A stretch of DNA of 64,000 nt from Candidatus Nealsonbacteria bacterium. Lineage in GTDB: Bacteria > Patescibacteriota > Minisyncoccia > Minisyncoccales > JANBVM01. Shown in pieces: positions 1-63,370 of this stretch. The stretch lies in the NCBI GenBank assembly GCA_026016225.1, contig CP061210.1, positions 450,000-513,999 of the forward strand, written 5' to 3'. Under the pieces are notes generated by a model. That model was not told where the DNA came from and did not search any database. It saw only the letters and a list, made by a program, of their open reading frames with translations. Made by a program: the position numbers and the translations under genes. The stretch's first letter is position 1. Each line of letters begins with the position of its first letter.

Positions 1-108
1 GGTAAATTAATTGCAATAAAAATTCGATGCGGCATAATATTTTACTATAGCATGGCTTAAAATTTAGTAAAAATTGATGATTTTGCTTAAATGTTTTAAG
101 ATTAAAGA

Positions 109-1302
109 GTGATATTAAATTTTTCAAAAAAAGAACCAAGAGAATCTTTGGTGGGAATAAGTGAGATGGGAGTTGTAATTCCCGAATTTTTTATTGGAGC
201 TGAAAAAATGGCTGAAGAACAACAGCTTTCTTTAGAATATGTAAATGGAGGATTAGGATTAATGCAAGCCAGAATACCCTATAATGTTTCCCTTCAAGAC
301 CTCATAATTAAAGCTGTTCAGAAAATAAAGTATCAAGACGCAGAGAGGTTTATTATTGCCACTGAGTCAGATTACGATTTATCAAAAGCCGTAATGGCAA
401 TAAAATCAATTAATAAGGGTTTAAAACTTACAATACTTCCCTTTCAATTAAAATTTGCCTGTTTAGCTGGAGTTCAAGCTCTACTGCTGGCTTCAGAGTA
501 TGCCATATCTCATAATAAACCTGCTATTGTCATAGTGGCAGACCGTTCCATTTACGGAGATAGGAAAGCAGAAGTAACTCAGGGAACTGGAGTAATAGCA
601 TTAAGAATAGAAAAAAATCCTGAGTTATTAGCTTTGGATTTTAGAAATTATGGTCAATACGTAGAAGATATAGATGATTTTAAAATTCCGGTAAATACAG
701 CACCCTTCCCTGAAGTTGACGGTCCCTTAACAAAACCAGCTTATATAAAATGCGTCATTAAGGCATATGAGGATTACAAAAAAAAGAATCTTCAATTTAA
801 AACACCATTAGAAAAAATTAATTATATTGTAATGCATACTCCTTTTCCCAAAATGGTTGTTTGGACTTCAGCTGTCCTTTGGCGTTATGAAAAATACAGA
901 GAAAAAGAATTTATCAAGTTATTGGAAGAATCTGTAGCTAATCCGAGTTTATTTAAAAAGTTTAAAAAACTACTTGATGAAATAAGAACTCTTCCAGAAT
1001 TTCAAAAATTCTTTCAGCAAAAGGTTAAGCCCGGTTTAAAATACAATTCTTATATTGGAAATTGCTACAATGCTTCTATTTTTATTTCCTTACTACCAGT
1101 CTTGGAACAAATCAAGGAGAACCAACAGGTCTTTATTATGGGTTATGGTTCAGGTTCGGGTTCTCTTACAATAATGGCAAAGGCAATAAAACAGGGATTT
1201 CAAAGCGACTTAAAAGAGCAAATAAAAAAAGGTAAAGAGCTTACCGTTGCTCAATACCGAGAGTGGAGAAATAATGTAATAAGAGAAATTAGAAGCCCTT
1301 AA
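109..1302 (+). CDS. HMG-CoA synthase-like condensing enzyme (thiolase fold)
   Basis: 397-aa ORF with GTG start. N-terminal VGI...P motif, Cys in LKFACLAGVQAL, His in MHTPFPKM and GNCYNASIF resemble the HMG-CoA synthase family. Ends 8 nt before the next gene. Confidence 0.65.
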   Translation: MILNFSKKEPRESLVGISEMGVVIPEFFIGAEKMAEEQQLSLEYVNGGLGLMQARIPYNVSLQDLIIKAVQKIKYQDAERFIIATESDYDLSKAVMAIKSINKGLKLTILPFQLKFACLAGVQALLLASEYAISHNKPAIVIVADRSIYGDRKAEVTQGTGVIALRIEKNPELLALDFRNYGQYVEDIDDFKIPVNTAPFPEVDGPLTKPAYIKCVIKAYEDYKKKNLQFKTPLEKINYIVMHTPFPKMVVWTSAVLWRYEKYREKEFIKLLEESVANPSLFKKFKKLLDEIRTLPEFQKFFQQKVKPGLKYNSYIGNCYNASIFISLLPVLEQIKENQQVFIMGYGSGSGSLTIMAKAIKQGFQSDLKEQIKKGKELTVAQYREWRNNVIREIRSP

Positions 1303-1310
1303 TTTAAGCT

Positions 1311-2327
1311 ATGAAAGAAGCTTATCTTTACAAAAAATTAGATAACAAAAGAGTGCAATGTAAGAATTGCGCCCATTATTGTGTTATTGAACCCGGAAAA
1401 AGAGGAATTTGCGGTGTCAGAGAAAATATTGATGGAAAATTATATGCCTTAAATTATAAAAAAGCAATAGCAGTAAATATTGATCCGATTGAGAAAAAAC
1501 CTTTTTTCCATTTTTTGCCAGGCAGTCATTCCTTATCCATTGCAACGGTTGGATGCAATTTGAGGTGTTTGAGTTGTCAGAATTGGGATATTTCCCAGGG
1601 TTTTAAAGAAAAAAAAGAAATTCCGGGTCAAAATTTAACTCCAAAAGATATTGTTAAATTGGCAATCAAAAATAATTTACCAAACATCTCTTATACTTAT
1701 ACTGAACCCACCATATTTTTAGAATATGCTTTAGACACTATGAAATTGGCAAAAAAAGAGGGAATAAAAAATACCTGGGTGAGCAATGGGTTTATGACAG
1801 AAGAATCAGCAAAATTAGTTATCCCCCATCTTGATGCCAACAATATTGATATTAAAAGTTTTTCTGATGAATTTTATAAGAAATACTGCGGAGCTAAACT
1901 CAAACCTGTTTTAGAAACAGCAAAACTAATGAAAAAATCTGGAGTTTGGGTAGAAATTACAACATTGGTTATTCCTACCTTGAGCGACTCTGAGCAAATG
2001 TTTAAAGAAATTGCCAAATTCATTAAAACCGAGTTAGGACCTGAAACACCCTGGCATATAACTCAATTCTCAGGAGCTATTTCCTGGAAACTTCAACATC
2101 TGCCCGAAACCCCTGTTAAAACCTTAGAGAAAGCTTATAATATCGGTAAAGAAGCAGGTTTAAGATACGTTTATACCGGAAATATCCCGGGTTTGCCGTC
2201 TGAAGATACAATTTGTCCCAAATGCAAAGCTTTAGCTATTGATAGAAGAGGTTATATTATTAAACGATACGATAAAAATGGTAAATGCCCTGAGTGCGGA
2301 GAAGATTTAAATTTAATTTTAAAATAA
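1311..2327 (+). CDS. amrS: AmmeMemoRadiSam system radical SAM enzyme
   Basis: GCNLRCLSCQNW (CxxxCxxC radical SAM cluster) and C-terminal CPKC...CPEC pair. Clustered with Memo/LigB-like and AMMECR1 genes. Confidence 0.8.
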   Translation: MKEAYLYKKLDNKRVQCKNCAHYCVIEPGKRGICGVRENIDGKLYALNYKKAIAVNIDPIEKKPFFHFLPGSHSLSIATVGCNLRCLSCQNWDISQGFKEKKEIPGQNLTPKDIVKLAIKNNLPNISYTYTEPTIFLEYALDTMKLAKKEGIKNTWVSNGFMTEESAKLVIPHLDANNIDIKSFSDEFYKKYCGAKLKPVLETAKLMKKSGVWVEITTLVIPTLSDSEQMFKEIAKFIKTELGPETPWHITQFSGAISWKLQHLPETPVKTLEKAYNIGKEAGLRYVYTGNIPGLPSEDTICPKCKALAIDRRGYIIKRYDKNGKCPECGEDLNLILK

Positions 2328-2328
2328 A

Positions 2329-2943
2329 ATGTCTAAAATAGTTTTTGCAACTTTTGCTCCTCATCCTCCAATACTTCTTCCTTCTGTTGGTTCTGAACAA
2401 GACCGCCTTAAGCTTAAAAAAACTATTCAAAGTTTGGAAACCTTAGGAGAAAAGCTGAAAGAAAAGGCGCCTGATGTAATTTTAATTTCTTCTCCTCATC
2501 CTGATTGGGGATTTAACGTTCCTTTGTTTTTTTTAGCTAAAAATTTCAGGGGTAAAATAAAAACCTATTTAATGGGAGTAAGAGAACCTGAGTTTTATTT
2601 TAAAGAAGGGAAAAAAGTCTACCAAAGTCTTGAAAAAGGTAAAAAATATGCTTTAATTGCTTCAGGTGACCTCTCCCATTGTTTAAAAGAAGAAGGACCT
2701 TACGGTTTTAATCCACAAGGTCCCAAATTTGATAAAGCCTTAATTGAATATTTGAAAAAAAAGGATATTGATAATTTTTTAAAACTAAATGAATATTTTC
2801 CCGAAGCCGGAGAGTGCGGTCTTCGTTCTTTTTGTTTCTTGTTGGGAATTTTAGAGGCTTCAAGCATCAATTGGAAACCAGAAATCTTATCCTATGAAGG
2901 ACCTTTTGGTGTAGGTTATTTAGTAGCCAATTTTAATCTATGA
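2329..2943 (+). CDS. Memo/LigB-superfamily (class III extradiol dioxygenase-like) protein, probable protein-B equivalent of the AmmeMemoRadiSam system
   Basis: FAPHPPILLP near the N-terminus, SSPHPD and ASGDLSHCL motifs. Starts 2 nt after the amrS stop and overlaps the next ORF by 4 nt. Confidence 0.55.
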   Translation: MSKIVFATFAPHPPILLPSVGSEQDRLKLKKTIQSLETLGEKLKEKAPDVILISSPHPDWGFNVPLFFLAKNFRGKIKTYLMGVREPEFYFKEGKKVYQSLEKGKKYALIASGDLSHCLKEEGPYGFNPQGPKFDKALIEYLKKKDIDNFLKLNEYFPEAGECGLRSFCFLLGILEASSINWKPEILSYEGPFGVGYLVANFNL

Positions 2944-4307
2944 AAAACTTAAATTTTAAAACAGAAACTGATGTTTTAAGTTTTCTTAAAAAGAATGAAA
3001 ATAATATTCGATTTGTTAGGATAATCTTCCCTGATGTTTTAGGAAGAGAAATGAGCTTTTGCATTCCCTCAGAAAAAATGAAATCTGCTTTTTTGCAAGG
3101 AGTAGGATTTGATGGAAGTTCAGTAGAAGGCTTTGCCAGGGTTGAAGAGTCAGATTTGATTATTGTACCTGCCCCTGAAACCTTCAGGGTTTTGCCCTGG
3201 GGTTATGAGTTTCAAGATGTGGGGTGGAAGGAGGCTGTTGTTTTTGGTGATATTTTTACATCAAAAGGAAATCGCTTTCAAGGAGATTCTAGGTATGTTT
3301 TAAAGAAAAGCTTAGAAAAAACAAAAAAATTTGGCAACCTTTACGTAGGTCCTGAACTTGAATTTTTTATTTTTGAAAATGAAAAACAACCAAAATTATT
3401 AGACCATGGAGGTTATTTTTATGGGGGGAAATTGGGAGAAATTAGAAAAATTGTTCAAATTTATCTTCAAGAAATGGGAATTAAAGCTGAGTGCGACCAT
3501 CATGAAGTAGCTCCAAGTCAGCACGAAATAAATTTAAGATATAGTGATGCTCTAAGTGTGGCTGACTCAATAGTTTTAGCCAAATATGTAATAAAAAGAG
3601 TGGCTCGAAATTTTGGCTTTTTCGCCTCTTTTATGCCAAAACCAATCGCCAGAATTAATGGTTCCGGGATGCATCTCCATTTATCTTTGTGGGAAAAAGA
3701 CAAAAATTTATTCTTTAAAGACAAAAAAGAACCCTTATCTAATTTAGCTAAAAAATATCTAACAGGATTAATCAAGTATGGCAGAGAAACTCAATTAGTT
3801 TTGAATCAATGGGTTAATTCTTACAAAAGATTAATTCCAGGTTATGAAGCTCCTGTATATTTGGCTTGGGGAAGAAAAAATAGGTCAGCCTATATTAGAG
3901 TTCCTGAGACTCACCTGGCAAAAGCAAACACTTCCACCAGAATTGAAGTTAGGTCTCCTGACCCTGCCTGTAATATCTATTTAGCTTTAGCTATTATCCA
4001 GGCAGCGGGGGTTCAAGGAGTTAAAGAAGATTTGAAGCTTTTACCTCCCCAAGAAAAGGACATTTTTGAAATGAAAGAAAGCGAGATGAAGAAAAGAAAG
4101 ATTAAAATTTTAGCTAAAAATTTAAACGAAGCTTTAAGGCATTTTAAGAATAGTAAATTAGTTAGAGAGACCCTTGGCGAGCATTTATTTAAGAAAATAA
4201 TCCAAAACAAGAAAATCGAATGGGAAAGATACAAAAAAGCAGCTGGTAAAAAATTTGAAAAGTCAGTTAGTCCGTATGAAATAAAAGAGTATTTACCGGT
4301 ACTTTAA
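2940..4307 (+). CDS. Glutamine synthetase family protein (ATP-dependent amide ligase)
   Basis: 455 aa. FDGSSVEGF, GPELEFF, HHEVAPSQHEIN and NGSGMHLHLSLW are classic glutamine synthetase motifs. ATGA overlap gives translational coupling with the upstream gene. Confidence 0.8.
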   Translation: MKNLNFKTETDVLSFLKKNENNIRFVRIIFPDVLGREMSFCIPSEKMKSAFLQGVGFDGSSVEGFARVEESDLIIVPAPETFRVLPWGYEFQDVGWKEAVVFGDIFTSKGNRFQGDSRYVLKKSLEKTKKFGNLYVGPELEFFIFENEKQPKLLDHGGYFYGGKLGEIRKIVQIYLQEMGIKAECDHHEVAPSQHEINLRYSDALSVADSIVLAKYVIKRVARNFGFFASFMPKPIARINGSGMHLHLSLWEKDKNLFFKDKKEPLSNLAKKYLTGLIKYGRETQLVLNQWVNSYKRLIPGYEAPVYLAWGRKNRSAYIRVPETHLAKANTSTRIEVRSPDPACNIYLALAIIQAAGVQGVKEDLKLLPPQEKDIFEMKESEMKKRKIKILAKNLNEALRHFKNSKLVRETLGEHLFKKIIQNKKIEWERYKKAAGKKFEKSVSPYEIKEYLPVL

Positions 4308-4317
4308 TTAATTCTTT

Positions 4318-4626
4318 ATGAAGTTTACGGTAAAAAATAAGAAAAAACATAATATTACAACTTTAATCAGAGCGATTGGTTATCGTTATTTAGGTGAAGA
4401 TGAAGATAGAAAAGAAATAAAACTTGTCAGACCTTTAGAAATAGGCGGCTATCCAAGATTTCATCTTTTTTTGAAGACAGAACCTAAAAATCAAGAGTTT
4501 CTTTTTAATCTGCACTTAGATCAAAGGAAGCCGGTTTATAAAGGCGCTCCGGCTCATGCGGCTGACTATGAAGGAGAAGCTGTAGAAAGAGAGGCAGAAA
4601 GAATTAAACAAATTTTAGAAAAGTAA
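4318..4626 (+). CDS. Hypothetical protein (102 aa) inside the AmmeMemoRadiSam operon
   Basis: ORF only. Co-oriented with 10-20 nt gaps to its neighbours. No recognisable motif. Confidence 0.45.
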   Translation: MKFTVKNKKKHNITTLIRAIGYRYLGEDEDRKEIKLVRPLEIGGYPRFHLFLKTEPKNQEFLFNLHLDQRKPVYKGAPAHAADYEGEAVEREAERIKQILEK

Positions 4627-4646
4627 TGTGCTAAAAATTAAAATAA

Positions 4647-5324
4647 ATGTTTAAAGATTATAAGTGGCTTTCACCAAAATTTAAAAGAACGCAGGCAATA
4701 ATAAAACCAATGCTGAAAATGCTTCAGGAAGAAGGAAACAATCTGAAGGTTCTAGATATAGGATGTGGGAATGGCGTGGTTTCAGAATTGATAGTTAAAA
4801 TGGGAAATGAAGTTTGGGGAATTGATGAAAATGAAGAAGCACTTAAAGAAGCTAAAAAGAGAGAAGTGAGAGTTTTTAAAGGAAACTTGGAGAAAAATCT
4901 TCCTTTTGAGAATAAATCTTTTGATGTGCTTTGGTGTTTGCGGGTCTTAGAACATATTTTTCACACAGAGCACTTTCTAAAAGAATGCCACCGTATTTTA
5001 AAACCTAAAGGCGTATTGGTTATTACCGCTGACAACATAGTTTCTCTACCTAATCGAATAAGGGTATTTTTCGGCCTTTATCCCCTTAGGGTTGCTCCCA
5101 GTGAAAATTATCCACGGTTTACCGACCACGTAAGATGTTTTACAAAATCCACTTTTAAAAACATTTTAAAAAATTCAGGTTTTAAATTAGAAAAAATCAC
5201 ATCAGACTTTGTTTGTTTTAATTTTGGTCAATATAGTTTTCCCCCTCGTTCAGAATTTTTGGGGAAAATACTTCCATCATTAGGCTCGACATTAATTGCC
5301 AAAGCGAGAAAAACTGAGATATGA
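4647..5324 (+). CDS. Class I SAM-dependent methyltransferase
   Basis: VLDIGCGNG (motif I), FDVLWCLRVLEHI and LKPKGVLVI motifs. Confidence 0.8.
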   Translation: MFKDYKWLSPKFKRTQAIIKPMLKMLQEEGNNLKVLDIGCGNGVVSELIVKMGNEVWGIDENEEALKEAKKREVRVFKGNLEKNLPFENKSFDVLWCLRVLEHIFHTEHFLKECHRILKPKGVLVITADNIVSLPNRIRVFFGLYPLRVAPSENYPRFTDHVRCFTKSTFKNILKNSGFKLEKITSDFVCFNFGQYSFPPRSEFLGKILPSLGSTLIAKARKTEI

Positions 5325-14535: not shown

Positions 14536-14716
14536 AAAACCCGAGTTTCTAGCTCGGGTTGAGTGGTCACGTAAAATGACTGCGTCGTCACGTGGCCGCG
14601 TGATGAATTCTGTAAAGAATTCATTTTACGCGGCTCCGGCGGCAGGATTCGAACCGAGGCCTCTCGGTCCTCGAACTACGCACAGCGATGCTGGCATCCT
14701 CGGTCTAGAACTTGAA
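14536..14716 (-). repeat. T-type composite repeat (tRNA-like GGTTCGAATCC...CCGCCGGAG fragment plus unique long hairpins)
   Basis: Minus strand: AGTTCTAGACCGAGGATGCCAGCATCGCTGTGCGTAGTTCGAGGACCGAGAGGCCTCGGTTCGAATCCTGCCGCCGGAG..., ending in CCCGAGCTAGAAACTCGGGTTTT. Confidence 0.7.
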
Positions 14717-15200: not shown

Positions 15201-15276
15201 CTCCGGCGGCAGGATTCGAACCCCTCTCGGTCGTCCTAGGAGGATAGGCGTCTCGGTCTCTTGAACCAAGCACAAG
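15201..15276 (-). repeat. T-type repeat (tRNA 3'-half-like fragment)
   Basis: Minus strand: GCTTGGTTCAAGAGACCGAGACGCCTATCCTCCTAGGACGACCGAGAGGGGTTCGAATCCTGCCGCCGGAG. T-loop plus acceptor-like strand but no 5' half. Confidence 0.7.
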
Positions 15277-32394: not shown

Positions 32395-32450
32395 TACGAA
32401 TCGAACCCCTCTCGGTCTCTCGAAAGTCTCACAGCTTAGCTCCCCCTAAT
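32395..32450 (-). repeat. T-type repeat fragment
   Basis: Minus strand: GGGGAGCTAAGCTGTGAGACTTTCGAGAGACCGAGAGGGGTTCGATTCG. Confidence 0.6.
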
Positions 32451-36525: not shown

Positions 36526-36650
36526 AAACTAATTGTTTAGTTATCAATTAAAACCCTTACTATATTTTATCAAAAAACCACCTAACTGATTATGAAAAAA
36601 AAGCCCAAGAATGGGCTTGATTTCATTTATTTGATTTACTGAATTAATTC

Positions 36651-36848
36651 TTAAAGGCGGGTTACGTTTGTTGCGTTAGGGCCCTTTGGAGAATCAGCTT
36701 TTTCGAAAGACACTCTATCACCTACTTTTAACTCTTCGTAGGTTACGCCCTTAAGTTCGTTGCTGTGAAAGAATAAATCTTTCTCTTCACCATCAACGGT
36801 AATAAATCCAAATCCTTTATCTGTAAGGTTTTTAATTGTTCCTTCCAT
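36651..36848 (-). CDS. Cold-shock protein (CspA family)
   Basis: KGFGFI (RNP1) and DLFFH (RNP2-like) motifs. 65 aa. Confidence 0.9.
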   Translation of the reverse strand: MEGTIKNLTDKGFGFITVDGEEKDLFFHSNELKGVTYEELKVGDRVSFEKADSPKGPNATNVTRL

Positions 36849-36951
36849 GATTGTGATATAAATTAATTAATATTTTAAGGTTTTATCCTAAAGTTTAGTT
36901 TCCTGAAAAAACTCAACTAAATTTTCATTAGGCAACTATCTTATGTAAATA

Positions 36952-36980
36952 ATATTAACATCTAAAAAATAATTGGTCAA
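36952..36980 (-). promoter_or_regulatory. Sigma70-type promoter of the csp gene (TTGACC-17 nt-TAATAT), giving a ~100-nt 5'UTR
   Basis: Minus strand: TTGACCaattattttttagatgtTAATAT. Confidence 0.5.
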
Positions 36981-37110
36981 CCAAAAAACCACCTAACTGA
37001 TAAGGTGGAAAATGCGAGCTCCCATACTCGGTCTAGAACCTTTGTTTTAAGGGGAAATTCAGCAGTTTTTGGAGCCTTTGAATAACGCGTCTCGGTCAGG
37101 GTATTTTAAG
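36981..37110 (-). repeat. L-type long intergenic repeat
   Basis: Minus strand: CCCTGACCGAGACGCGTTATTCAAAGGCTCCAAAAACTGCTGAATTTCCCCTTAAAACAAAGGTTCTAGACCGAGTATGGGAGCTCGC...CCACCTTATCAGTTAGGTGGTTTTTTGG. Confidence 0.7.
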
Positions 37111-37141
37111 CTAAAATGAGACAAATGAAACAGTAAATAGG

Positions 37142-37939
37142 CTAAAGAATATATTTTTCTTCAACTAAGAATCCTGGATGTTTAAAGATAGCTATAGCGA
37201 ACTTGTTATCTGGGGAGGTAACAATATAATTGTGTTTATCTTTATCTAATGGCACGGGCTCATATTTTTTCACGCTTGAGCCCTCAGGGATATATTGAAG
37301 ATCAAAAACAGGAGAAATAAAATAGCAATTAGCGTTTACCTTAAAGAACTCGTCTAAATCTTCGCTTTTGTAATTCAAAAAGTCCCTTTGATAAACCAAA
37401 ACAATCTCTTCGTAATTTTTTACTATCATTTGAAGTTTTTCAACATCTATGGGTCGGAAGGGAGATAAGGAATCACCTACTAAATTTTCATAATCAACAT
37501 ACTCTTTAACTTGGAAAAGATAAGGTAAATGTTCCGCAGGCAATCTGAGCTGTTTATCGTCCAATTTATCAATCTTTACTCCGGGTTCAACAATCATCAC
37601 CGCAGTATCGCACGAGGATTCTTTTTTTGGCAAAACAACAAAAATTAAACTACCGGAAGGGAACTTACTTTCCAAATATCTGAGGAATACTGTTGTAATA
37701 AATAACTCTTTTACCTTCTGTCCGTCTATTTGTTTACTGGCTACTGTAAGTTGGTCTTGTGCATTTAATTTGAAAATAGAATCGGTTAATATTTGGGCAT
37801 CAACAGGAATTACACTACCAGGCGGAAGATTCTTGAATTTATATGCTAAAGCAGCTCTAAAAATCTCTTCATAAACTCCCTGACAATTTACTCCCTCCTC
37901 ACGGCGATAGCCAAAAATTATTTTCCATGGTGTTTGCAT
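37142..37939 (-). CDS. Hypothetical protein (265 aa), third gene of a three-gene operon
   Basis: ORF only. Starts 6 nt after the upstream gene. Confidence 0.5.
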   Translation of the reverse strand: MQTPWKIIFGYRREEGVNCQGVYEEIFRAALAYKFKNLPPGSVIPVDAQILTDSIFKLNAQDQLTVASKQIDGQKVKELFITTVFLRYLESKFPSGSLIFVVLPKKESSCDTAVMIVEPGVKIDKLDDKQLRLPAEHLPYLFQVKEYVDYENLVGDSLSPFRPIDVEKLQMIVKNYEEIVLVYQRDFLNYKSEDLDEFFKVNANCYFISPVFDLQYIPEGSSVKKYEPVPLDKDKHNYIVTSPDNKFAIAIFKHPGFLVEEKYIL

Positions 37940-37945
37940 TATAAC

Positions 37946-38203
37946 TTACTTCAGGTCAATATTTTTTATTCTATCTAAAATTTTTTGATACCATTGAATT
38001 TGTTTTATTGTATCTTCAAAATCGTAATATGTTAATTTCCTATGTATTCTATTCCAAATAGCTGATCTTGTTATCGTTCCATTTTTGAAGAAAATATACA
38101 TCTTGGATTCAACAGAAGCGCCACCGTACACAAGCGGATATGTTCTAACAGTTTCGCCCCTCTCTTTTGCTTCTTCTTTTATTAGTTTTGTTAGCTCTGT
38201 CAT
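37946..38203 (-). CDS. Hypothetical protein (85 aa)
   Basis: 4-nt ATGA overlap with the upstream ORF. Confidence 0.45.
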   Translation of the reverse strand: MTELTKLIKEEAKERGETVRTYPLVYGGASVESKMYIFFKNGTITRSAIWNRIHRKLTYYDFEDTIKQIQWYQKILDRIKNIDLK

Positions 38204-38754
38204 ATTTTCAAAATTTTAATTTTCTTAATTTTTTCTTTCATAAGAACTTTAATTAATTTATCCCAGTCTCCAGTTATATGCAATTCTCCTCTTTCAATCG
38301 CCCTCTCAAGGTTGGTCTTTCTTTCTAATAATAAGAAAGAAAAGTCTCCTAATTTTTGTTCATCTGGATAGTATTTGTAGTTGGTGTTTTCAGAAACAGT
38401 CAGGTAAATACACTTTATTTCTTTATTGACTCTTTTTATAGAGCCAAATACCTTTTTTATATTTTCAACTCCCTCTTTTGAATAAATCCCTCTGAATTTT
38501 ATTTCCAAAACTGCAATAACTTGCTTAGGTTTATAAAGTAAATTTTCTTGAGCTTTTTCTCCTTCTTTTAGCACTATCAAATCTAATTCATAAGGAATGC
38601 CTTTGATAAAAACATCTCTATTACTTACATTGAGTCCCTTTTTAATGAACTCTTTTCTTAAAAGCTCGATAGTTAATGCACCAATGAATTTGGTAGCTCT
38701 CATTTCGTTCCTAAATTTCATTATTGTGTTTAGTAGTTTGAGTTCCTTTTTCAT
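38200..38754 (-). CDS. PD-(D/E)xK nuclease-fold candidate (184 aa)
   Basis: YELDLIVLK ... VIAVLEIKF spacing fits a D...ExK catalytic core, with a preceding helix Glu (LTIELL). Confidence 0.4.
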   Translation of the reverse strand: MKKELKLLNTIMKFRNEMRATKFIGALTIELLRKEFIKKGLNVSNRDVFIKGIPYELDLIVLKEGEKAQENLLYKPKQVIAVLEIKFRGIYSKEGVENIKKVFGSIKRVNKEIKCIYLTVSENTNYKYYPDEQKLGDFSFLLLERKTNLERAIERGELHITGDWDKLIKVLMKEKIKKIKILKI

Positions 38755-38836
38755 CTATTTTATGATTTCTAAAAATCAGTTTCTCTGCTTTTAAAATAAC
38801 CTCATTTCTTTGAAATTTCAAGCCGAAATAAAAATT

Positions 38837-38850
38837 GCCCAGCGATGGGC
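38837..38850. terminator. Hairpin GCCCAGCGATGGGC with flanking A/T runs (copy 1 of 3 identical)
   Basis: aaaaattGCCCAGCGATGGGCtttttaaat. Identical 14-mers at 61905 and 63214. Confidence 0.6.
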
Positions 38851-38894
38851 TTTTTAAATCAAATTAAGAAAAAACTAATTTATCCATCAAAAAT

Positions 38895-39674
38895 TTAAAC
38901 ATCCATTTTTTCTTCAGCAACTTGTTTAATCTTCTGTTGAATTTTCTCTTTAAATTCCTTACCAACTGAATCAAATAGTGTTAAAAGCTGTTCGAAGGTA
39001 TCTTCGCCACCGAGAAAATTCCAATATTCTTCACCAATTAAAAATTCTTTTCCTCTTTCTAAAACTCCTTGTTCTGTAAATCTTTCGTATGGCTTTGGAT
39101 GATAGGGATTATAGGGGAAAGATAGGAAAACTTTTACTGGTTTTCTGCGCCGTGCTATCCATTCTAATAATTTTGTCTTTGATTTTGTAAAAACATCGAT
39201 ATTAGGTTTTACGGTTTTAATTTCAAAATAATGTTCTACGCCCCCTTTAAGTATATAAAGGTCAGCTATTCTACCTTCTTTCTGAGCCTTACCATCTCTT
39301 GGAGAAGCACTTAAAACTTCTTTCATTTCTCTTTCACTATTTACCCTTCTTTCCTTATTCCTTAATTCGCGGACTATATTACCTATAATGGACTTTTGCT
39401 CTTTTGAAAGTACGCCACCAATATCATATTTAGTAAAACATTCTTTGGCAGAATCAGAAGCAATAATTTTTGAAACGTCTTCATAAATAGACATTCCTAA
39501 CGTCGTAGCTAAAGAATGAATAAAGGAATAAGCAGCAACTTTTTCGCTGTCTTGAATAAGACGAGTAAGAAATGGCATTGAGGTAGTTTCTCGGCTATAT
39601 CTTTTTAACTTACTCTCAATTTTTTGCTGTAATAATCCTTTAATCTGTTGTTTTTGATTGCTTGATAATGGCAT
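38895..39674 (-). CDS. Probable type II restriction endonuclease (TdeIII-like by recollection)
   Basis: Starts 5 nt after the methyltransferase gene. FIHSLATTLGMSIYE and YFEIKTVKPN (ExK-like) motifs. The family assignment needs an HMM check. Confidence 0.45.
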   Translation of the reverse strand: MPLSSNQKQQIKGLLQQKIESKLKRYSRETTSMPFLTRLIQDSEKVAAYSFIHSLATTLGMSIYEDVSKIIASDSAKECFTKYDIGGVLSKEQKSIIGNIVRELRNKERRVNSEREMKEVLSASPRDGKAQKEGRIADLYILKGGVEHYFEIKTVKPNIDVFTKSKTKLLEWIARRRKPVKVFLSFPYNPYHPKPYERFTEQGVLERGKEFLIGEEYWNFLGGEDTFEQLLTLFDSVGKEFKEKIQQKIKQVAEEKMDV

Positions 39675-39679
39675 AGGAT

Positions 39680-40855
39680 CTAGTGATTTTTAATAAAATA
39701 ATAAATGCTTTCGCTAAACCTTATGTTGTCACGCTCTGTTCTCATAAGAACAGGGCGGTGATATATTTTTTCAATACTGTAATTACAAAGTTTAGCGATG
39801 TCCGGATAGAGATTATCTCTGTCATTAACAACGACAAATATTTTTGCTTTTGGTTTCAACCACTGATTAATATTTTTAAAAACTTCAATAATATCCCTTT
39901 TATACTCTTCTTTGGCTTCCTGACTTTTGCCTTTTGATGCAGGGCCAATTTCTTTTACACAATTATTATCAAACCCAAAAAGCTCATAAGCATAACGGTG
40001 TTGGTCGTGATAATCGATTAAGCCAATATAGGGAGGAGAGGTAAAAATGCCGTCAAATTTACCACCCTTATAATCCGGAAGCTCATTTAGTTTTATTTCC
40101 CTTGAGTCTCCTTGAATAATTTTCATTTTAGCGTTAGTTCTTAACTCATCAAATTCTTTAATACGCCTTATAGTACCTAAACTGTAACGATTTATGAATT
40201 TTAGAGCTTCATCAACTGGCCGACATGTCCTCTTGTGTTTTATACACCAATAGGGCTTTTTTATTGGCTTTTTAGGTCTTGCCAAATCATAATGAGGTAT
40301 TTGACGAGCACTCCGAGCCGAACGACTTAATATTATTTTTAGGATATCTTGGTTTTTATAATTTTTAATTTGTTCTCGATAAAACAAAATCTCCTGCAAT
40401 GCTCTTTTAGAGAACCATGTATTGAAATAATTATTATCTATCGTAAACTCTTTGTATCCCTTTTTAAACAAGGCAGGTTGTTTTGAATGTCGATACCAAT
40501 TACTAAAATCTTTTGTTTTAGATAGAATATCCTTAATCTCAGCTTCTACTTCTGGAATGTTATATTTTTTTGTTTTAATTTCAGAAATTAAACAATTAAA
40601 AAGGGAAATCTCTATACCTGCTGAATTCATACCAAGGATGTTAGATTCAATAAGAGCAGTTCCTGACCCCAAAAAGGGATCTAATATCCAATCTCCTTTT
40701 TTGAAGTAATGTTTTAAAAATGCCTCTACGAGTTGCGGTATAAATTTACCTAAATAAGGATGTAAACGATGGACATGTTTTGTTCTTTTATATTCTTGCA
40801 CATTGGCAAAAGATAAATCTATCCCGTTTAATGATGTTAGAGATTTGTTTGACAT
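39680..40855 (-). CDS. DNA methyltransferase (N6-adenine/N4-cytosine type)
   Basis: DPFLGSGT (SAM motif I) in the N-terminal part and FTSPPY (catalytic motif IV) in the C-terminal part. Confidence 0.75.
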   Translation of the reverse strand: MSNKSLTSLNGIDLSFANVQEYKRTKHVHRLHPYLGKFIPQLVEAFLKHYFKKGDWILDPFLGSGTALIESNILGMNSAGIEISLFNCLISEIKTKKYNIPEVEAEIKDILSKTKDFSNWYRHSKQPALFKKGYKEFTIDNNYFNTWFSKRALQEILFYREQIKNYKNQDILKIILSRSARSARQIPHYDLARPKKPIKKPYWCIKHKRTCRPVDEALKFINRYSLGTIRRIKEFDELRTNAKMKIIQGDSREIKLNELPDYKGGKFDGIFTSPPYIGLIDYHDQHRYAYELFGFDNNCVKEIGPASKGKSQEAKEEYKRDIIEVFKNINQWLKPKAKIFVVVNDRDNLYPDIAKLCNYSIEKIYHRPVLMRTERDNIRFSESIYYFIKNH

Positions 40856-40902
40856 ATCTATTCCTTAATTTACCTTACACTTATTTTTGTTTTTTATCAA
40901 AT

Positions 40903-40938
40903 GATTTTTGACAATTTTTGACGACTTTTGACAAAAAA
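40903..40938 (-). promoter_or_regulatory. Three helically phased direct repeats GTCAAAA (10-nt period) upstream of the methyltransferase gene
   Basis: Minus strand: TTGTCAAAAGTCGTCAAAAATTGTCAAAAATC. Lies ~50-80 nt upstream of the ATG. Confidence 0.45.
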
Positions 40939-40960
40939 CGAAGCCTTATGGTTTCGCTAG
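40936..40960 (-). terminator. Rho-independent terminator of 41051..41704
   Basis: Minus strand: CGAAACCATAAGGCTTCG followed by TTTTTTG. Confidence 0.5.
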
Positions 40961-40978
40961 GATAATTTTTTTATATAG

Positions 40979-41105
40979 ATTTTGGCTGCTTGCATTGAGC
41001 TTGCCGAACTGCTAGCATTCTCGGTCCAGAACAGAAATTTTAAGAGGAAATTAAGGGCTTTTTGGGGGTGTTTCAGAACGCGTCTCGGTCGGTTCGTCTT
41101 TGGTG
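40979..41105 (-). repeat. L-type long intergenic repeat (overlaps the 3' end of the upstream ORF)
   Basis: Minus strand: GACCGAGACGCGTTCTGAAACACCCCCAAAAAGCCCTTAATTTCCTCTTAAAATTTCTGTTCTGGACCGAGAATGCTAGCAGTTCGGCAAGCTCAATGCAAGCAGCC. Confidence 0.7.
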
Positions 41106-41704
41106 GGTTGCGGCGGCTGGGTTGCGGCGGACGGCTTTTTCTTCTTATAGACCCAGGAATATATCCATTCTATGGGCATCGGCTTCACTTGTTTTTTTGA
41201 TATTTTTTCAATTTCTTGATTTAGATAAAAAAGCATTATACTTGCAATCGTTAAAAAATCACCTCTAGCTCCCTCTGGATAAATACTTCTTGCCTCTTGT
41301 AAATTTCTTACAATATCGGAAGAGTAAATTAAAGTAGTTAATAGGTCTTTTACAACACCACTTTCTAGATTTGAGCCATATACATTATGAGCAAAATCAT
41401 TTCTTATTTTTCTTATTATATGAAGATCATGCGCAAGTTTTTGACTAATTAAACCTAAACGATGTGCAAATTGTACTTTCGAATTGAAATTTGACAGGGG
41501 AGCTGTAGGACCATCAAATAATTCATCATCCTTGGTGCTTACCTGAACAAGATAATTTTTTAATAAAGTAGTTAGTGTGTTCTCAATTAGAGAGGCGGTT
41601 AAAATCATGGCCGCACGATCTGTTTCTTTAGAAAACTCCTCTAAAAGAAAATCTGCCCAATATTCTGGCAAACTTTTTTTTATTTTTTTTTCATTATCTG
41701 GCAT
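41051..41704 (-). CDS. DUF4145-like protein (domain common in R-M/abortive-infection contexts)
   Basis: IRKIRNDFAHN motif. Start moved to MPDNEKK because the upstream 25 codons lie in the tRNA-like repeat. The Pro/Thr-rich C-terminal tail is encoded by the L-type repeat. Confidence 0.5.
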   Translation of the reverse strand: MPDNEKKIKKSLPEYWADFLLEEFSKETDRAAMILTASLIENTLTTLLKNYLVQVSTKDDELFDGPTAPLSNFNSKVQFAHRLGLISQKLAHDLHIIRKIRNDFAHNVYGSNLESGVVKDLLTTLIYSSDIVRNLQEARSIYPEGARGDFLTIASIMLFYLNQEIEKISKKQVKPMPIEWIYSWVYKKKKPSAATQPPQPTKDEPTETRSETPPKSP

Positions 41705-41759
41705 AAATTTATATATATTTTTCGTTAATCTCGAAACTATATCTACATCCGCTGACGTC

Positions 41760-41869
41760 CTCTCGGTCGCAAAAACCAAGCACTAACCTGCTCCGGCGTT
41801 AGGATTCGAACCCCTCTCGGTCGCCCTAACGCCATAAGCGTCTCGGTCCTCGAACTGCGCTCAACGATG
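41760..41869 (-). repeat. T-type tRNA-like repeats directly abutting the 3' end of tRNA-Gln
   Basis: Minus strand after the tRNA: GCATCGTTGAGCGCAGTTCGAGGACCGAGACGCTTATGGCGTTAGGGCGACCGAGAGGGGTTCGAATCCTAACGCCGGAGCAGGTTAGTGCTTGGTTTTTGCGACCGAGAG. It contains a 9-bp stem, GGCGTTAGG/CCTAACGCC. Confidence 0.75.
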
Positions 41870-41940
41870 CTGCGGGGCTAGGATTCGAACCTAGATTGAG
41901 TTCTTCAAAGGAACCTGTGCTACCATTACACCACCCCGCA
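41870..41940 (-). tRNA. tRNA-Gln (anticodon UUG)
   Basis: Minus strand: TGCGGGGTGGTGTAATGGTAGCACAGGTTCCTTTGAAGAACTCAATCTAGGTTCGAATCCTAGCCCCGCAG. Manual cloverleaf has a 7-bp acceptor (U1-A72), anticodon loop CTTTGAA and T-loop TTCGAAT. No encoded CCA. Confidence 0.85.
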
Positions 41941-41951
41941 TTAATAAGTGA

Positions 41952-43076
41952 TTAAGCCAGTGATTCAGTAATTTCAACTATTGCCAGTTCTAAAGGTAGT
42001 TGTGGAATTGAGGAGTATTTCATTTTGTTTTGGGCCTGCAAAAATATATCTACAATTTTTCTCAAATCTTCTTGTTTAAATTTCTCTGTTTGTCTCTTAA
42101 GTGTTCTAATTTCTTCTTTTGTCAAACCTGATAAATATCCATACGAAGAAGCAGGATTTTCACCCTCCCCCATTATCTTAAGAATTAATGCTTTTCTTAG
42201 ATAACCAACCAGGGTTTTAGCAAACTCGTCTAAATCTAAACCCTTTCCACTAATTTCATTTAAATATTCTATTGTTTTAAAGGTTTTTTTATCCGAGAGA
42301 AAATCAGTGAATTTGCTGACTAACTCTATCTCTACCAAGCCTAATAAATCTTTAATGTCTTCAGCTTTTATCTCTTTTTCAGAATCTTTATAAAAAGTAG
42401 AAACCTGGTCTAATAAGCTTTCTGCATCTCTGATTGAACCTCCGGCATTTAGAGCTATTAATTCTAAGGCTGGTTTTTCGATTTTAATATTTTCCTTTTT
42501 AATGATAATTGTCAACTTTTTTATAATTTCTGACAAGGTGAACTTTCTAAAATCAAATCTCTGACATCTGGAGATGATTGTTGGAATCATTTTATGGATT
42601 TCTGTTGTAGCTAAAACGAAAATAGCATGGGCTGGCGGTTCCTCTAAAGTTTTCAAAAGGGCGTTAGCAGCATCTTTTGAAAGTTGATGAGCTTCATCCA
42701 GAATAAAGACTTTATATTTTGATTTTGTTGGAGAAAATCTAATTCCATTTTTCAGTTCTCTGATATCATCAATTCCCCTGTGGGAAGCAGCATCAATTTC
42801 AATTAAATCTATTGCTCTTCCTCCCATAATTTCAACACATGAAGAACACTTATCACAGGGTTCAAATTCCCCTTCTTTTCTATTTTGACAATTAACAGCT
42901 TTAGCTATTAGCCGGGCCATAGTTGTCTTCCCCGTTCCCTTAGGTCCTGAAAATAAATAAGCATGGGAAATCATTCCCTTTGAAATTGCATTGGTTAAGG
43001 TTTTGGCAATGTGTTCTTGACCAATAAATTCAGCGAAAGTTTGGGGACGATATTTTCGATATAGAACTAAAGACAT
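41952..43076 (-). CDS. dnaX: DNA polymerase III subunit gamma/tau (short form)
   Basis: GPKGTGKTTMARLIAKAVNC Walker A, zinc module CxxC, and SRCQRFDF sensor motif. Confidence 0.9.
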   Translation of the reverse strand: MSLVLYRKYRPQTFAEFIGQEHIAKTLTNAISKGMISHAYLFSGPKGTGKTTMARLIAKAVNCQNRKEGEFEPCDKCSSCVEIMGGRAIDLIEIDAASHRGIDDIRELKNGIRFSPTKSKYKVFILDEAHQLSKDAANALLKTLEEPPAHAIFVLATTEIHKMIPTIISRCQRFDFRKFTLSEIIKKLTIIIKKENIKIEKPALELIALNAGGSIRDAESLLDQVSTFYKDSEKEIKAEDIKDLLGLVEIELVSKFTDFLSDKKTFKTIEYLNEISGKGLDLDEFAKTLVGYLRKALILKIMGEGENPASSYGYLSGLTKEEIRTLKRQTEKFKQEDLRKIVDIFLQAQNKMKYSSIPQLPLELAIVEITESLA

Positions 43077-43777: not shown

Positions 43778-44662
43778 TTATTCGCTCTTTAATGCTTCTA
43801 AAATTTTTTTAAATTCTTTATATCGGGTTCTTAATGTTACTTCAGTTACGTTAGCGGCCTTAGCTAATTCCCGTTGTGTTATCTTTTCACCATATTGTTT
43901 GCAAGCGAGATATAGGGCAGCAGCTACTAATCCAGTAGGTTTTTTTCCCAGGGCGAGACCACCTTCTTCAGCCGTTTTTAAGAGCTGGCCAGCCAGAATT
44001 TGACTTCTTCCAGAAATAGCAAGCTTTTCAGAAATTCCTGGAATATATTTTAGTGGATCTAACGGTGCAATTTTTATATCAAGCACATTGAGTAAAAGTT
44101 TACAATAGCGATTAATAGTTTTTTTGCTGATAGAAGTTATCTCTGAAATTTCTTCAATAGTTTTTGGAATTTCCTTTACTCTATAGGCAATATAAATAAC
44201 AGCAGCAGCTAAATGTTCAAAACTTCTACCTTGAGTAGGAAGTTTTTTTAAAGCTTTATATAAAATCACTGCTGATTCTAATTTAACGGGCCATTCAACA
44301 TTGAGCTGGCTTAATAAAGAATGAAGTCTATCCATTGCTACATTAATTCTGTGTTTTTCTGGACCAAGGAGGCAACTGTGCCATTTTCTCATTCGATTTA
44401 TTACAGGTTGTGTATGTGAGGGAATTTTGTTTCCTCTAAAATCAAGATTTTTATGATCTATATAGCCTCCTGGGATTCCGTAATAAGTTATCGCTCCTAC
44501 AGGATATTTCGGCTCTCCATATTTTCGTTTTACACCTCCTGTCTGGTCTAATTCTTTATCCCTGATTATAAGTCCGCATTCACAACACCATTCACCTCTT
44601 GTCAGGTCGTAACTGAAATTACTATTTCCACATTCCGGGCATACTTCAACCTCTTCTTTCAT
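43778..44662 (-). CDS. Transcription factor IIB / archaeal TFB homologue
   Basis: N-terminal zinc ribbon CPECG...CCECG. Two cyclin-like repeats (GRSFEHLAAAVIYIAYR...TINRYCKLL and GKKPTGLVAAALYLACK...TLRTRYKEF). Confidence 0.8.
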   Translation of the reverse strand: MKEEVEVCPECGNSNFSYDLTRGEWCCECGLIIRDKELDQTGGVKRKYGEPKYPVGAITYYGIPGGYIDHKNLDFRGNKIPSHTQPVINRMRKWHSCLLGPEKHRINVAMDRLHSLLSQLNVEWPVKLESAVILYKALKKLPTQGRSFEHLAAAVIYIAYRVKEIPKTIEEISEITSISKKTINRYCKLLLNVLDIKIAPLDPLKYIPGISEKLAISGRSQILAGQLLKTAEEGGLALGKKPTGLVAAALYLACKQYGEKITQRELAKAANVTEVTLRTRYKEFKKILEALKSE

Positions 44663-61731: not shown

Positions 61732-61826
61732 AAAAACCGCCTTCTTGGCGATTTTTTATGCCTCTCGGTCGCTCGAACCGAGCACTATTCTGCTCCGGGG
61801 AGCAGACGACGTTCGAACCTATTGGC
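61732..61826 (-). repeat. Composite S/T-type repeat
   Basis: Minus strand: CAATAGGTTCGAACGTCGTCTGCTCCCCGGAGCAGAATAGTGCTCGGTTCGAGCGACCGAGAGGCATAAAAAATCGCCAAGAAGGCGGTTTTT. Confidence 0.75.
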
Positions 61827-63249: not shown

Positions 63250-63370
63250 TAAAACAGGGTTAAAAACCCTGTTTTCGCTGCTGAGGTCCGGCGGTAGGAC
63301 TCGAACCCGTCTCGGTCTCTCGAACCGAGCACTAGCCTGCTCCCCAATAGGACTCGAACCCCTACGGGTT
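63250..63370 (-). repeat. T-type repeat with two tandem T-loop-like units
   Basis: Minus strand: GTAGGGGTTCGAGTCCTATTGGGGAGCAGGCTAGTGCTCGGTTCGAGAGACCGAGACGGGTTCGAGTCCTACCGCCGGACCTCAGCAGCGAAAACAGGGTTTTTAACCCTGTTTT. Confidence 0.75.

Follow-up and report, generated by a model that had tools for sequence, protein, structure and literature searches.

Do three closely packed genes beside an R-M pair in a Candidatus Nealsonbacteria (CPR) genome make up a dedicated defence operon, or do they owe their arrangement to something else? The question was raised by a 64,000-nucleotide stretch of contig CP061210.1 (referred to here as the window; all coordinates are window positions), in which the trio had been proposed, from sequence, to be an undescribed nuclease-based defence or conflict system. 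The genes, which we call A, B, and C, lie in a variable islet of ~4.8 kb that extends from tRNA-Gln/dnaX to cspA and that also contains a HEPN-like gene and a TdeIII-type R-M pair.

The physical description of the locus in the original prediction was correct. The three tightly packed minus-strand ORFs were found again at exactly the coordinates given for them, with a 4-nt ATGA overlap between A and B (38200-38203) and a 6-nt gap between B and C (37940-37945). The hairpin that had been described between the R-M pair and gene A (GCCCAGCGATGGGC) is terminator-like on both strands; an identical copy (100%) was found at the end of contig L029 (loci with relatives of A, B, or C are designated by L numbers). 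The repeat downstream of gene C is real and has a 74%-identical direct copy, and the genes upstream of the trio, annotated by Pfam and PADLOC, are a PF09520 TdeIII-type restriction endonuclease and an N6_N4 methyltransferase (Table 1). A, B, and C are probably co-transcribed in this genome, from the promoter-like leader, which moves along with A, to the hairpin past C. As judged from protein-level homologues elsewhere, all three are real genes: 46 homologues were found for A, seven for B, and five for C, the last number increasing to 55 cluster representatives, among 1.84 billion, in a profile search.

Table 1. Features of the A-B-C locus and the surrounding islet
Feature	Position	Strand	Basis or remark
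Terminator-like hairpin with T-run, likely end of the A-B-C transcript	36989..37008	-	terminator scoring
80-nt dispersed repeat, 3' region of gene C, GACCGAG(A) motifs at its bounds	37018..37097	-	direct repeat of 41011-41090
Gene C, 265 aa	37142-37939	-	ORF
Gene B, 85 aa	37946-38203	-	ORF
Gene A, 184 aa	38200-38754	-	ORF
Promoter-like site TTGAAA-17-TATTTT, in conserved leader upstream of A	38793..38821	-	consensus scan
Bidirectional terminator-like hairpin, boundary of R-M pair and gene A	38837..38850	.	both-strand terminator scoring
Type II restriction endonuclease, TdeIII/HinfI family, PF09520	38895..39674	-	Pfam E 1.6e-57; PADLOC REase_II
N4/N6 DNA methyltransferase, partner of the PF09520 enzyme	39680..40855	-	Pfam N6_N4_Mtase; PADLOC MTase_II E 3.3e-113
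80-nt repeat, copy 2, upstream of the methyltransferase, overlaps 3' end of HEPN-like ORF	41011..41090	-	direct repeat search
HEPN/DUF4145-like accessory gene, weak assignment	41051..41779	-	phrog_22031 E 1.4e-13
tRNA-3'-like fragment after tRNA-Gln(UUG)	41789-41812		repeat D11
tRNA-Gln(UUG), upstream islet border	41869..41940	-	ARAGORN; Rfam 62.6 bits

The products of the three genes had been described as uncharacterised, and the family-library scans bear this out, since neither a housekeeping assignment nor a match to a known defence family was obtained for any of them. Scans of Pfam, PADLOC, NCBIfam, and PHROGs with the single proteins and with whole family alignments gave nothing significant (a match of A to DUF6602 was below threshold), and searches of PDB sequences with profiles of A, B, and C, as well as with two divergent A members, returned chance matches only.

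The predicted structure of A (AF2 monomer model; pLDDT 93.9, pTM 0.89) was compared with the PDB using Foldseek. The 14 best matches were all chains of NucC (E 1.2e-4 to 4.8e-3, TM up to 0.61), the best of them having E 1.2e-4, probability 1.00, and TM 0.58-0.61. The RMSD values were high, 4.4-9.9 Å. Weaker matches (E 0.006-0.3) were to NucS/EndoMS, BbvCI, PspGI, and SgrAI. In an alignment of 31 A-family sequences, which are 28-83% identical, residues K22, G25, E30, S44, V48, E56, Y74, E84, G89, F103, C115, and E122 are invariant, R46, D47, D58, and K86 are conserved in at least 90% of the members, and a T-G-D-W motif near the C-terminus is kept in most. The ELDL...LEIKF segment of A, which had been read as the D...ExK core of a restriction-endonuclease fold, thus contains two of the invariant residues (E56 and E84) and two of the nearly invariant ones (D58 and K86), and the AF2 and Foldseek results back the fold. 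From the modelled core fold and the catalytic pattern, we confidently assign A to the PD-(D/E)xK/restriction-endonuclease-fold proteins. A would be a compact stand-alone Mg2+-dependent endonuclease, with E30, D58, and E84-x-K86 as the putative catalytic set. A search of plasmids and phages with tblastn revealed one phage homologue of A, in which E30, E56, D58, E84, and K86 are also kept, and nothing else; scans of viral contigs for A and C gave no match. Sub-threshold matches to DUF6602 were seen in 13 of the 31 A-family members (best E 8e-5); for A of the window, the match covered profile positions 18-100 of 104 and scored 13.4 bits (E 0.076), against a gathering score of 27. These matches point to A being a distant relative of DUF6602, below the Pfam membership threshold.

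By the same kind of comparison, C is the founder of a small unannotated family. No Pfam or PADLOC match was found in any of the 46 members aligned (19-78% identity), and hhalign found no relation between the C and A families. Invariant columns in the C family are limited to F56, E78, D111, Q143, and K145. The AF2 model of C (pLDDT 75, pTM 0.80) yielded no significant Foldseek match in the PDB or BFVD; the non-significant ones include BsmI, PaqCI, Card1, and Can2, most of which we take to have the restriction-endonuclease fold. The predicted order of secondary-structure elements is helix(E78)-strand-strand(D111)-strand(QxK)-helix-strand, and the positions of the conserved residues fit a predicted helix at 73-90 and strands at 98-104, 112-117, and 138-147. 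C is most likely a PD-(D/E)xK-variant nuclease with E78, D111, and Q143-x-K145 as its putative active-site set, an assignment that draws on the motifs and on the predicted secondary-structure order. It would be the second stand-alone nuclease of the locus, unrelated to A.

B is a small conserved protein to which no role is assigned. Its seven homologues have an invariant core, VxTYPLVYGGASVE, and no Pfam, PADLOC, PHROG, NCBIfam, or PDB match was obtained for it. Homology within the family stops near residue 74, and the C-terminus is chimeric over its final ~11 residues: the terminal KNIDLK is found both in B and in an unrelated ORF of 250 aa, located ahead of the C homologue in L027. A toxin-antitoxin pair formed by B with A or C was considered and rejected, since the three contexts of B contain no A or C neighbour and have no neighbour in common.

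The distribution of the three genes in other genomes is what bears most directly on the operon proposal. Relatives of A, B, and C are sparse and patchy, and are scattered across CPR, Anaerolineales, and Acidobacteriota in multi-billion-protein libraries. Exactly one of the three genes was present in each of 37 related loci, as determined by blastp and by six-frame tblastn; many of the comparison contigs are short (1-5 kb), so that a more distant partner gene may lie beyond their ends, and the 37 loci correspond to ca. 22 independent contexts (eight for A, three for B, and 11 for C). Even in the nearest relatives, which are 85-91% identical in DNA, the neighbouring genes are unrelated. A C homologue at 89% amino acid identity is preceded by the unrelated 250-aa ORF mentioned above, downstream of A homologues with 85-88% identity there are likewise unrelated ORFs, and no conserved neighbour of C was found in its 11 contexts. 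Four neighbouring ORFs were compared with A, B, and C and ruled out as cryptic relatives of them: those that follow B in L030 (184 aa), A in L028 (267 aa), and A in L037 (92 aa), and the one that precedes C in L027 (250 aa).

DNA homology breaks at the gene borders. The A unit extends from window position 38834 (in L029, where it takes in ~80 nt upstream of the ATG) or 38777 (in L028) down to 38206 or 38218, the B unit begins at 38204, and the C unit extends from 37981 or 37939 down to 37023. The 6-nt B-C spacer and the last 12 codons of B accompany C in the unrelated context of L027. Given the absence of co-occurrence, the unrelated neighbours, and the breaks at gene borders, the tight spacing of A, B, and C appears to be a by-product of the joining of pieces and does not speak for a functional link between them. 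We therefore consider it likely that the locus is a juxtaposition, specific to this lineage, of three accessory genes with independent inheritance, of which A and C are putative stand-alone nucleases. Under this explanation, the three genes would be co-transcribed by accident of their insertion into the variable islet beside tRNA-Gln and dnaX, the 3' end of B would have been rewritten on attachment of the segment that carries C, and A and C would each act alone on invading DNA, in a restriction-like or abortive-infection-like manner. We infer nuclease activity for both proteins, each being a putative single-gene conflict or defence nuclease.

Defence-gene surroundings, the other element of the original prediction, were encountered beyond this genome as well: A and C recur among R-M, KAP NTPase, GmrSD, CBASS-like, and recombinase genes, a possible association with defence islands. 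Their contexts include GmrSD-HNH together with two R-M sets; a type I S subunit, HARE-HTH, and DUF3800; KAP NTPase with SMODS/SLATT; PLD-SNF2 with an MmeI-type methyltransferase, KAP NTPase, and a serine recombinase; and, in further loci, HsdR-like, DUF4238 with PIF1, and Replic_Relax genes. A recognisable defence gene was absent from contexts L009, L016, L037, and L015, the last of which adjoins xanthine dehydrogenase.

Such neighbours could mean that A, C, or both are orphan or accessory restriction endonucleases (Type II enzymes with a distant methylase, or Type IV modification-dependent ones) that widen the coverage of the neighbouring R-M genes. A stands beside a PF09520 endonuclease and an N6_N4 methyltransferase in the window and in L006, the Type II enzymes BbvCI and PspGI are among its structural matches, one A-family member matched the PADLOC REase_II model (E 0.0022), and a Dcm methylase is located 1.5 kb from C in L025. 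However, the PF09520 enzymes of the window and L006 are not detectably similar to each other, so that co-inheritance of A with its R-M neighbour was rejected as the source of the adjacency. Moreover, a methyltransferase is found beside A in two of eight contexts and near C in at most two to three of 11, which leaves six A contexts and about nine C contexts without an adjacent methylase. On balance, we regard an accessory restriction function as unlikely.

Of the end motif of the repeat, GACCGAGA, the window contains 13 copies, all of them on the minus strand, compared to 0.54 copies expected. The 80-nt repeat is also present 3' of the C homologue in L001, and islands adjoin tRNA genes in the window, L006, L017, and L031. 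When the locus and a repeat-rich region were scanned with Rfam, the tRNA was the sole match, and the base composition of the islet is not distinct from that of its flanks. Matches of the HEPN-like ORF to DUF4145 (E 0.0033) and to several HEPN families all stayed below threshold. An integron with attC sites was ruled out, since the 80-nt repeat is unstructured as RNA (z +0.5 to +1.3) and no integrase gene is present at 36.5-42 kb. One bolder proposal, to which we would give a small chance, is that two undescribed single-gene immune nucleases adjoin here. In this proposal, C would found a new E-D-QxK family that has no structural relative and A would be a minimal NucC-like enzyme that may be gated by a ligand in the absence of a cognate cyclase. 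CPR genomes would exchange each of them as a unit of one gene, with breakpoints that coincide precisely with the gene border, and this movement would be linked to the strand-specific GACCGAGA/tRNA-3'-like repeat that brackets accessory modules. Patescibacteria might then have a mode of cassette exchange that has gone unrecognised.

Another possibility, which we find distinctly doubtful, is that A is a minimal NucC-type effector, gated by a cyclic oligonucleotide that is produced from another locus of the genome or by a different cell, and acting by abortive infection. NucC is a CD-NTase-associated or type III CRISPR-associated endonuclease that is activated by cA3 (PDB 6p7p, 6q1h, 6uxf, 7zgw). 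The leading position of NucC chains among the structural matches of A and the similar active-site motifs (LDx25EIK in A, resembling IDx30EAK in NucC; bioRxiv 10.1101/694703) are in agreement with such a role. In addition, the order R46...D58...Y74...E84xK86, followed by T-G-D-W, recalls the NucC ligand residues R53, Y81, and T226 (bioRxiv 10.1101/694703), a likeness of order and not of superposed positions. Yet no CD-NTase/SMODS or Cas10 gene adjoins A in any of its eight contexts, and A is ~56 residues shorter, so that the gate loop and the trimer embellishments may be missing. There is also no similarity at the sequence level (no NucC chain at E values up to 10 in profile and single-sequence searches of PDB sequences), and the RMSD values given above are high.

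As to the proposal from which we started, that a dedicated operon of A, B, and C specifies a single new nuclease-based defence system of three components, the features that had suggested it are all present: the tight spacing with its overlap and short gap, a single promoter-like site with terminator-like hairpins on both flanks, the R-M pair next door, and the lack of housekeeping annotation. Nevertheless, the trio was not found together in any of the 37 related loci beyond this genome (ca. 22 independent contexts), relatives at 85-91% identity have other neighbours, and homology breaks at gene borders, with the end of B moving together with C in L027. The single-system proposal is thus very improbable and close to refuted. 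Since the ATGA overlap and the 6-nt gap permit translational coupling, A, B, and C may have evolved cooperation locally, in this genome. Least probable of all is that the genes are housekeeping or repair factors (a NucS/EndoMS-like mismatch nuclease or a Holliday-junction resolvase) or decaying functionless remnants: NucS/EndoMS is among the structural matches of A and the C-terminus of B is chimeric, but the very sparse and patchy distribution (46, seven, and 55 relatives) in variable contexts speaks against the former, and strictly conserved catalytic-type residues in intact frames argue against decay of A and C.

The preferred explanation, the juxtaposition of separately inherited genes, carries a methodological lesson: tight spacing beside an R-M pair mimicked a multi-gene system, and comparative context resolved it into three separately travelling genes. 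In CPR/Patescibacteria, genomes are tiny and recognised defence systems other than R-M are few, which makes unannotated nuclease genes in their variable islets plausible additions to the immune repertoire. The C family comprises ~55 clusters, has no relative in Pfam, PADLOC, or the PDB, and is, as a small and clean family, well suited to structural and functional work. Through the A family, the NucC/DUF6602 branch of restriction-fold nucleases is linked with CPR genomes, other phyla, and one phage.

Among known systems, Type II restriction endonucleases (BbvCI, PspGI, SgrAI) and NucS/EndoMS have the core fold and the catalytic pattern in common with A. The likeness to the Type II enzymes includes the R-M genes that adjoin A in two of its eight contexts and ends at the dedicated methylase, which most A copies lack. 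When set against stand-alone PD-(D/E)xK nucleases, C differs in having Gln in place of the usual Asp/Glu of (D/E)xK and in showing no significant structural or profile match to a known family; it resembles them in the invariant acidic/Lys set E78...D111...Q143-x-K145(E146), carried on a predicted helix-strand-strand-strand-helix-strand core. A and NucC have in common the restriction-endonuclease fold, an N-terminal pair of helices, and a D-x(25-30)-E-x-K motif; A is smaller (184 aa vs. ~240 aa) and has no cyclase or Cas10 next door. A further point of comparison is Damona, an experimentally validated single-gene anti-phage cassette with DUF6602 from the Vibrio cholerae chromosomal integron, which its authors describe as related to RmuC and to the small CBASS endonuclease (bioRxiv 10.1101/2024.07.02.601686). 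Unlike Damona, A is found at a locus with no integron, structured attC, or IntI; like Damona, it appears to be a small nuclease-like gene that stands alone and is moved in cassette fashion.

The three packed minus-strand genes next to a restriction-modification (R-M) pair, A, B and C, encode proteins identical to the database hypothetical proteins IB617_02595, IB617_02600 and IB617_02605, annotated on a 661-kb contig; the source genome is a Candidatus Nealsonbacteria (CPR/Patescibacteria) MAG. The original prediction, which suggested that the three genes might be an undescribed nuclease-based defence or conflict system, described the locus accurately wherever this could be checked, including the ORFs, the ATGA overlap of A and B, the 6-nt spacer between B and C, the hairpin, the repeat, and the R-M neighbour.

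Features of the A-B-C locus and of the dispersed repeats (window positions, except where L001 is named)
Feature	Position	Strand	Remarks
Gene A	38200-38754	-	184 aa
Gene B	37946-38203	-	85 aa
Gene C	37142-37939	-	265 aa
N4/N6 DNA methyltransferase	39680-40855	-	upstream of A
TdeIII/HinfI-family restriction endonuclease (PF09520)	38895-39674	-	upstream of A; Pfam E 1.6e-57
GC-rich hairpin	38837-38850	both	upstream of A; terminator-like score
Promoter-like site	38821-38793	-	5' of A
Hairpin with T-run	37008-36989	-	3' of C
80-nt repeat	37018-37097		between C and 3' hairpin; 74%-identical copy at 41011-41090
tRNA-Gln(UUG)	41869-41940		directly after dnaX; one islet border
Octamer GACCGAGA, 5' bases	14669, 15232, 15258, 32417, 34234, 37097, 41026, 41090, 41768, 41822, 41848, 61770, 63317	-	window
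Octamer GACCGAGA	8844, 8944, 11175	+	L001
tRNA-3'-like fragments (GGTTCGAATCCTnnCGCCGGAGC)	41789-41812, 15201-15238, 14633-14693, 63287-63317, 32401-32417		window

Homologues were gathered for A (46), B (7) and C (5, rising to 55 cluster representatives after a full HMMER profile search), and 37 loci carrying one were fetched from genomes and metagenomes. Based on blastp against the ORFs and six-frame tblastn against the DNA, all 37 loci contained exactly one of the three genes, so that no co-occurrence of the trio was found outside this genome. With duplicates collapsed, the loci represent eight independent contexts for A, three for B, and eleven for C; no neighbour is conserved across the eleven contexts of C or common to the three of B. 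Close relatives are also differently flanked: a contig with a C homologue at 89% amino acid identity has an unrelated 250-aa ORF in the place expected for B, and contigs with A homologues at 85-88% identity carry unrelated ORFs downstream. Thus, the claim of a single defence system does not hold, and the trio, taken as a system, is not a real unit.

DNA homology to near relatives stops at gene borders. The A unit extends from position 38834, directly after the hairpin and with an 80-nt leader included, to 38206; the B unit begins at 38204; the C unit runs from 37981 or 37939 (as judged from L027 and L001, respectively, two loci with C homologues) to ~37023, including the 80-nt repeat. The final 12 codons of B (residues ...KNIDLK), together with the stop codon and the 6-nt spacer, recur at the 3' end of an unrelated 250-aa ORF upstream of the L027 C homologue, with ~91% DNA identity between window positions 37946-37981 and L027 positions 756-794, while the similarity of B to its own family ends near residue 74. 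The common tail implies that B is chimeric at its C-terminus and that the C-carrying segment starts inside the upstream gene; together with the end of family similarity, it indicates that the tightness of the B-C junction came with that segment. The tight spacing carries no information on functional coupling. A, B and C are real genes that are joined at their borders here and are independent elsewhere.

The variable islet that holds these genes is bounded by tRNA-Gln(UUG) on one side and cspA/rlmN on the other, and its gene order is HEPN/DUF4145-like gene, R-M pair, A, B, C. L031, a B-family locus from a related genome, also begins with dnaX-tRNA-Gln but continues into other cargo, which suggests that the position 3' of dnaX-tRNA-Gln is an insertion hot spot common to both genomes. 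Other A and C loci (L006 and L017) lie directly downstream of tRNA genes, a placement consistent with a recombination hot spot. The L031 cargo (positions 1-4800, compared with window positions 36600-43076) comprises a dCTP deaminase, tRNA-Asn, a 241-aa Hjc-like/PD-(D/E)xK-like ORF, the B homologue and an unrelated 184-aa ORF. In the window, the HEPN/DUF4145-like ORF runs into the second 80-nt repeat copy (41051-41135) and so ends in an unusual Pro/Thr-rich stretch (...PSAATQPPQPTKDEPTETRSETPPKSP), which leaves the real C-terminus of the protein uncertain. Between cysS and a membrane-protein gene adjoining dnaX, this CPR bacterium encodes a clear 294-aa TFIIB homologue (43778-44662, minus strand; PF00382 TFIIB repeat, E 1.1e-32), with an N-terminal TFIIB-type zinc ribbon match under the Pfam cut-off. 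TFIIB is usually an archaeal or eukaryotic transcription factor.

The octamer GACCGAGA occurs 13 times in the window, always on the minus strand, against 0.54 copies expected (none of 100 shuffles reached 13). Twelve of the copies are intergenic, downstream of a minus-strand gene or tRNA-Gln, and those that follow a protein gene lie 45-300 nt past its stop codon. Octamer copies bracket accessory modules both in the window and in L001, namely, the HEPN-like gene, the R-M, A, B and C block, and a SMODS-SLATT operon. At several sites a 7-bp hairpin (CUUGGUU...GACCGAG) has the octamer as its 3' arm, and this hairpin carries a compensatory change (CUCGGUU) at positions 61770 and 63317; the octamer may serve as a signal for 3' ends, for processing or for recombination. 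Dispersed fragments resembling the T-arm and acceptor 3' part of tRNA (GGTTCGAATCCTnnCGCCGGAGC) were also observed, one of them directly after tRNA-Gln, and the 41775-41870 piece folds stably (z -2.5). ARAGORN and Rfam made no tRNA call for these fragments; repeated integration may have left them behind as scars, or they may represent tRNA-like RNA elements.

The AlphaFold model of A (31-sequence alignment) is of very high confidence, with a pLDDT of 93.9 and a pTM of 0.89. Its best PDB matches are 14 NucC chains (E 1.2e-4 to 4.8e-3, TM up to 0.61), followed by NucS/EndoMS, BbvCI and PspGI, all of them of restriction-endonuclease fold. Conserved columns of the family include the classical constellation: E30 (core helix 1), E56/D58 (preceding strand 2) and E84-x-K86 (strand 3). 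Model and alignment bear out the predicted D...ExK core: A has the restriction-endonuclease fold with its catalytic set intact. The sole phage homologue, a 204-aa hypothetical protein of Ruminococcus phage NatCom_28274 (PV036439.1 40409-41023; L038 3971-4585), is 31% identical, keeps the catalytic residues, and is encoded by the gene next upstream of that for the large terminase subunit; it might be an A-family nuclease carried by a phage.

The original prediction recognised no motif in B or C. No relative of known function was detectable for B, although its core (VxTYPLVYGGASVE...YIFF) is strongly conserved. C and 46 relatives matched no family library; a search of 1.84 billion proteins yielded a small family of 55 representatives (50% identity level), uniformly ~260 aa long. 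In an alignment of 46 sequences, with identities as low as 19%, F56, E78, D111, Q143 and K145 are the sole invariant columns and give C an invariant acidic/Lys set. In an AF2 model built from only five sequences (pLDDT 75, pTM 0.80), the invariant residues fall in helix 73-90, at the start of strand 112-117, and in strand 138-147.

Neighbours of A include GmrSD-HNH with two R-M sets in one context, a type I specificity subunit, HARE-HTH and DUF3800, a PIN toxin-antitoxin pair, and an integrase. Those of C include a KAP NTPase with a SMODS-SLATT operon; a PLD-SNF2 helicase with an MmeI-type methylase, KAP NTPase and serine recombinase; an HsdR-like helicase, DUF4238 with a PIF1 helicase, and a Replic_Relax protein; and a Dcm methylase. 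In other contexts no neighbour is recognisable, and the defence association, judged from raw neighbour lists, is suggestive only. L001 (Patescibacteria group bacterium, JANBVM010000003.1; 1-11072) is a dense island in a CPR genome, where the order is ParB-fused N6_N4 methylase, S24 peptidase, KAP NTPase (970 aa), three ORFs of unknown function, the C homologue, and then a CBASS-like operon in which a 211-aa ORF stands between a SMODS (CD-NTase-like) and a SLATT_4 gene.

We propose that A and C are each probably an Mg2+-dependent DNA endonuclease acting as a solo conflict or defence nuclease, and that the three genes are probably co-transcribed here, from the leader of A to the terminator after C, merely through their mode of insertion. 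Self-DNA might be spared by modification dependence, NucC-style ligand gating, or low basal activity with abortive-infection logic. Two alternatives refine this stand-alone nuclease model without contradicting it: that these are orphan or Type IV restriction enzymes, which is unlikely, and that A is a ligand-gated orphan NucC-type effector, which is slightly less likely still. A true three-gene system is highly improbable given one gene per locus, and housekeeping genes or remnants are scarcely credible. A joint reading, in which C is a single-gene immune nuclease of new structure, A a cyclase-less ligand-gated mini-NucC, and the exact gene-border junctions and strand-specific GACCGAGA/tRNA-3'-like repeats reflect an unrecognised process of cassette exchange in CPR bacteria, is unlikely when taken as a whole.

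NucC is a cA3-activated endonuclease of CBASS and type III CRISPR systems. The LDx25EIK of A resembles the NucC motif, IDx30EAK (bioRxiv 10.1101/694703). Membership of A in the NucC family was rejected by the tests run, because there was no sequence-level match and no cyclase or Cas10 in any of its eight contexts. Sub-threshold matches to DUF6602 (Pfam) were found in 13 of 31 A-family members (best E 8e-5; window protein 13.4 bits, cut-off 27). DUF6602 marks Damona, a validated single-gene anti-phage cassette of the Vibrio cholerae chromosomal integron, related, according to its authors, to RmuC and the small CBASS endonuclease (bioRxiv 10.1101/2024.07.02.601686). A is a new distant member among solitary restriction-fold nucleases, in the NucC/DUF6602 branch. 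The helix-strand-strand-strand-helix-strand order of the C model fits the PD-(D/E)xK layout, except that Gln replaces the first residue of the (D/E)xK triad. C is well suited to structural study, and its small, unannotated family probably represents a further variant of the restriction-fold superfamily.
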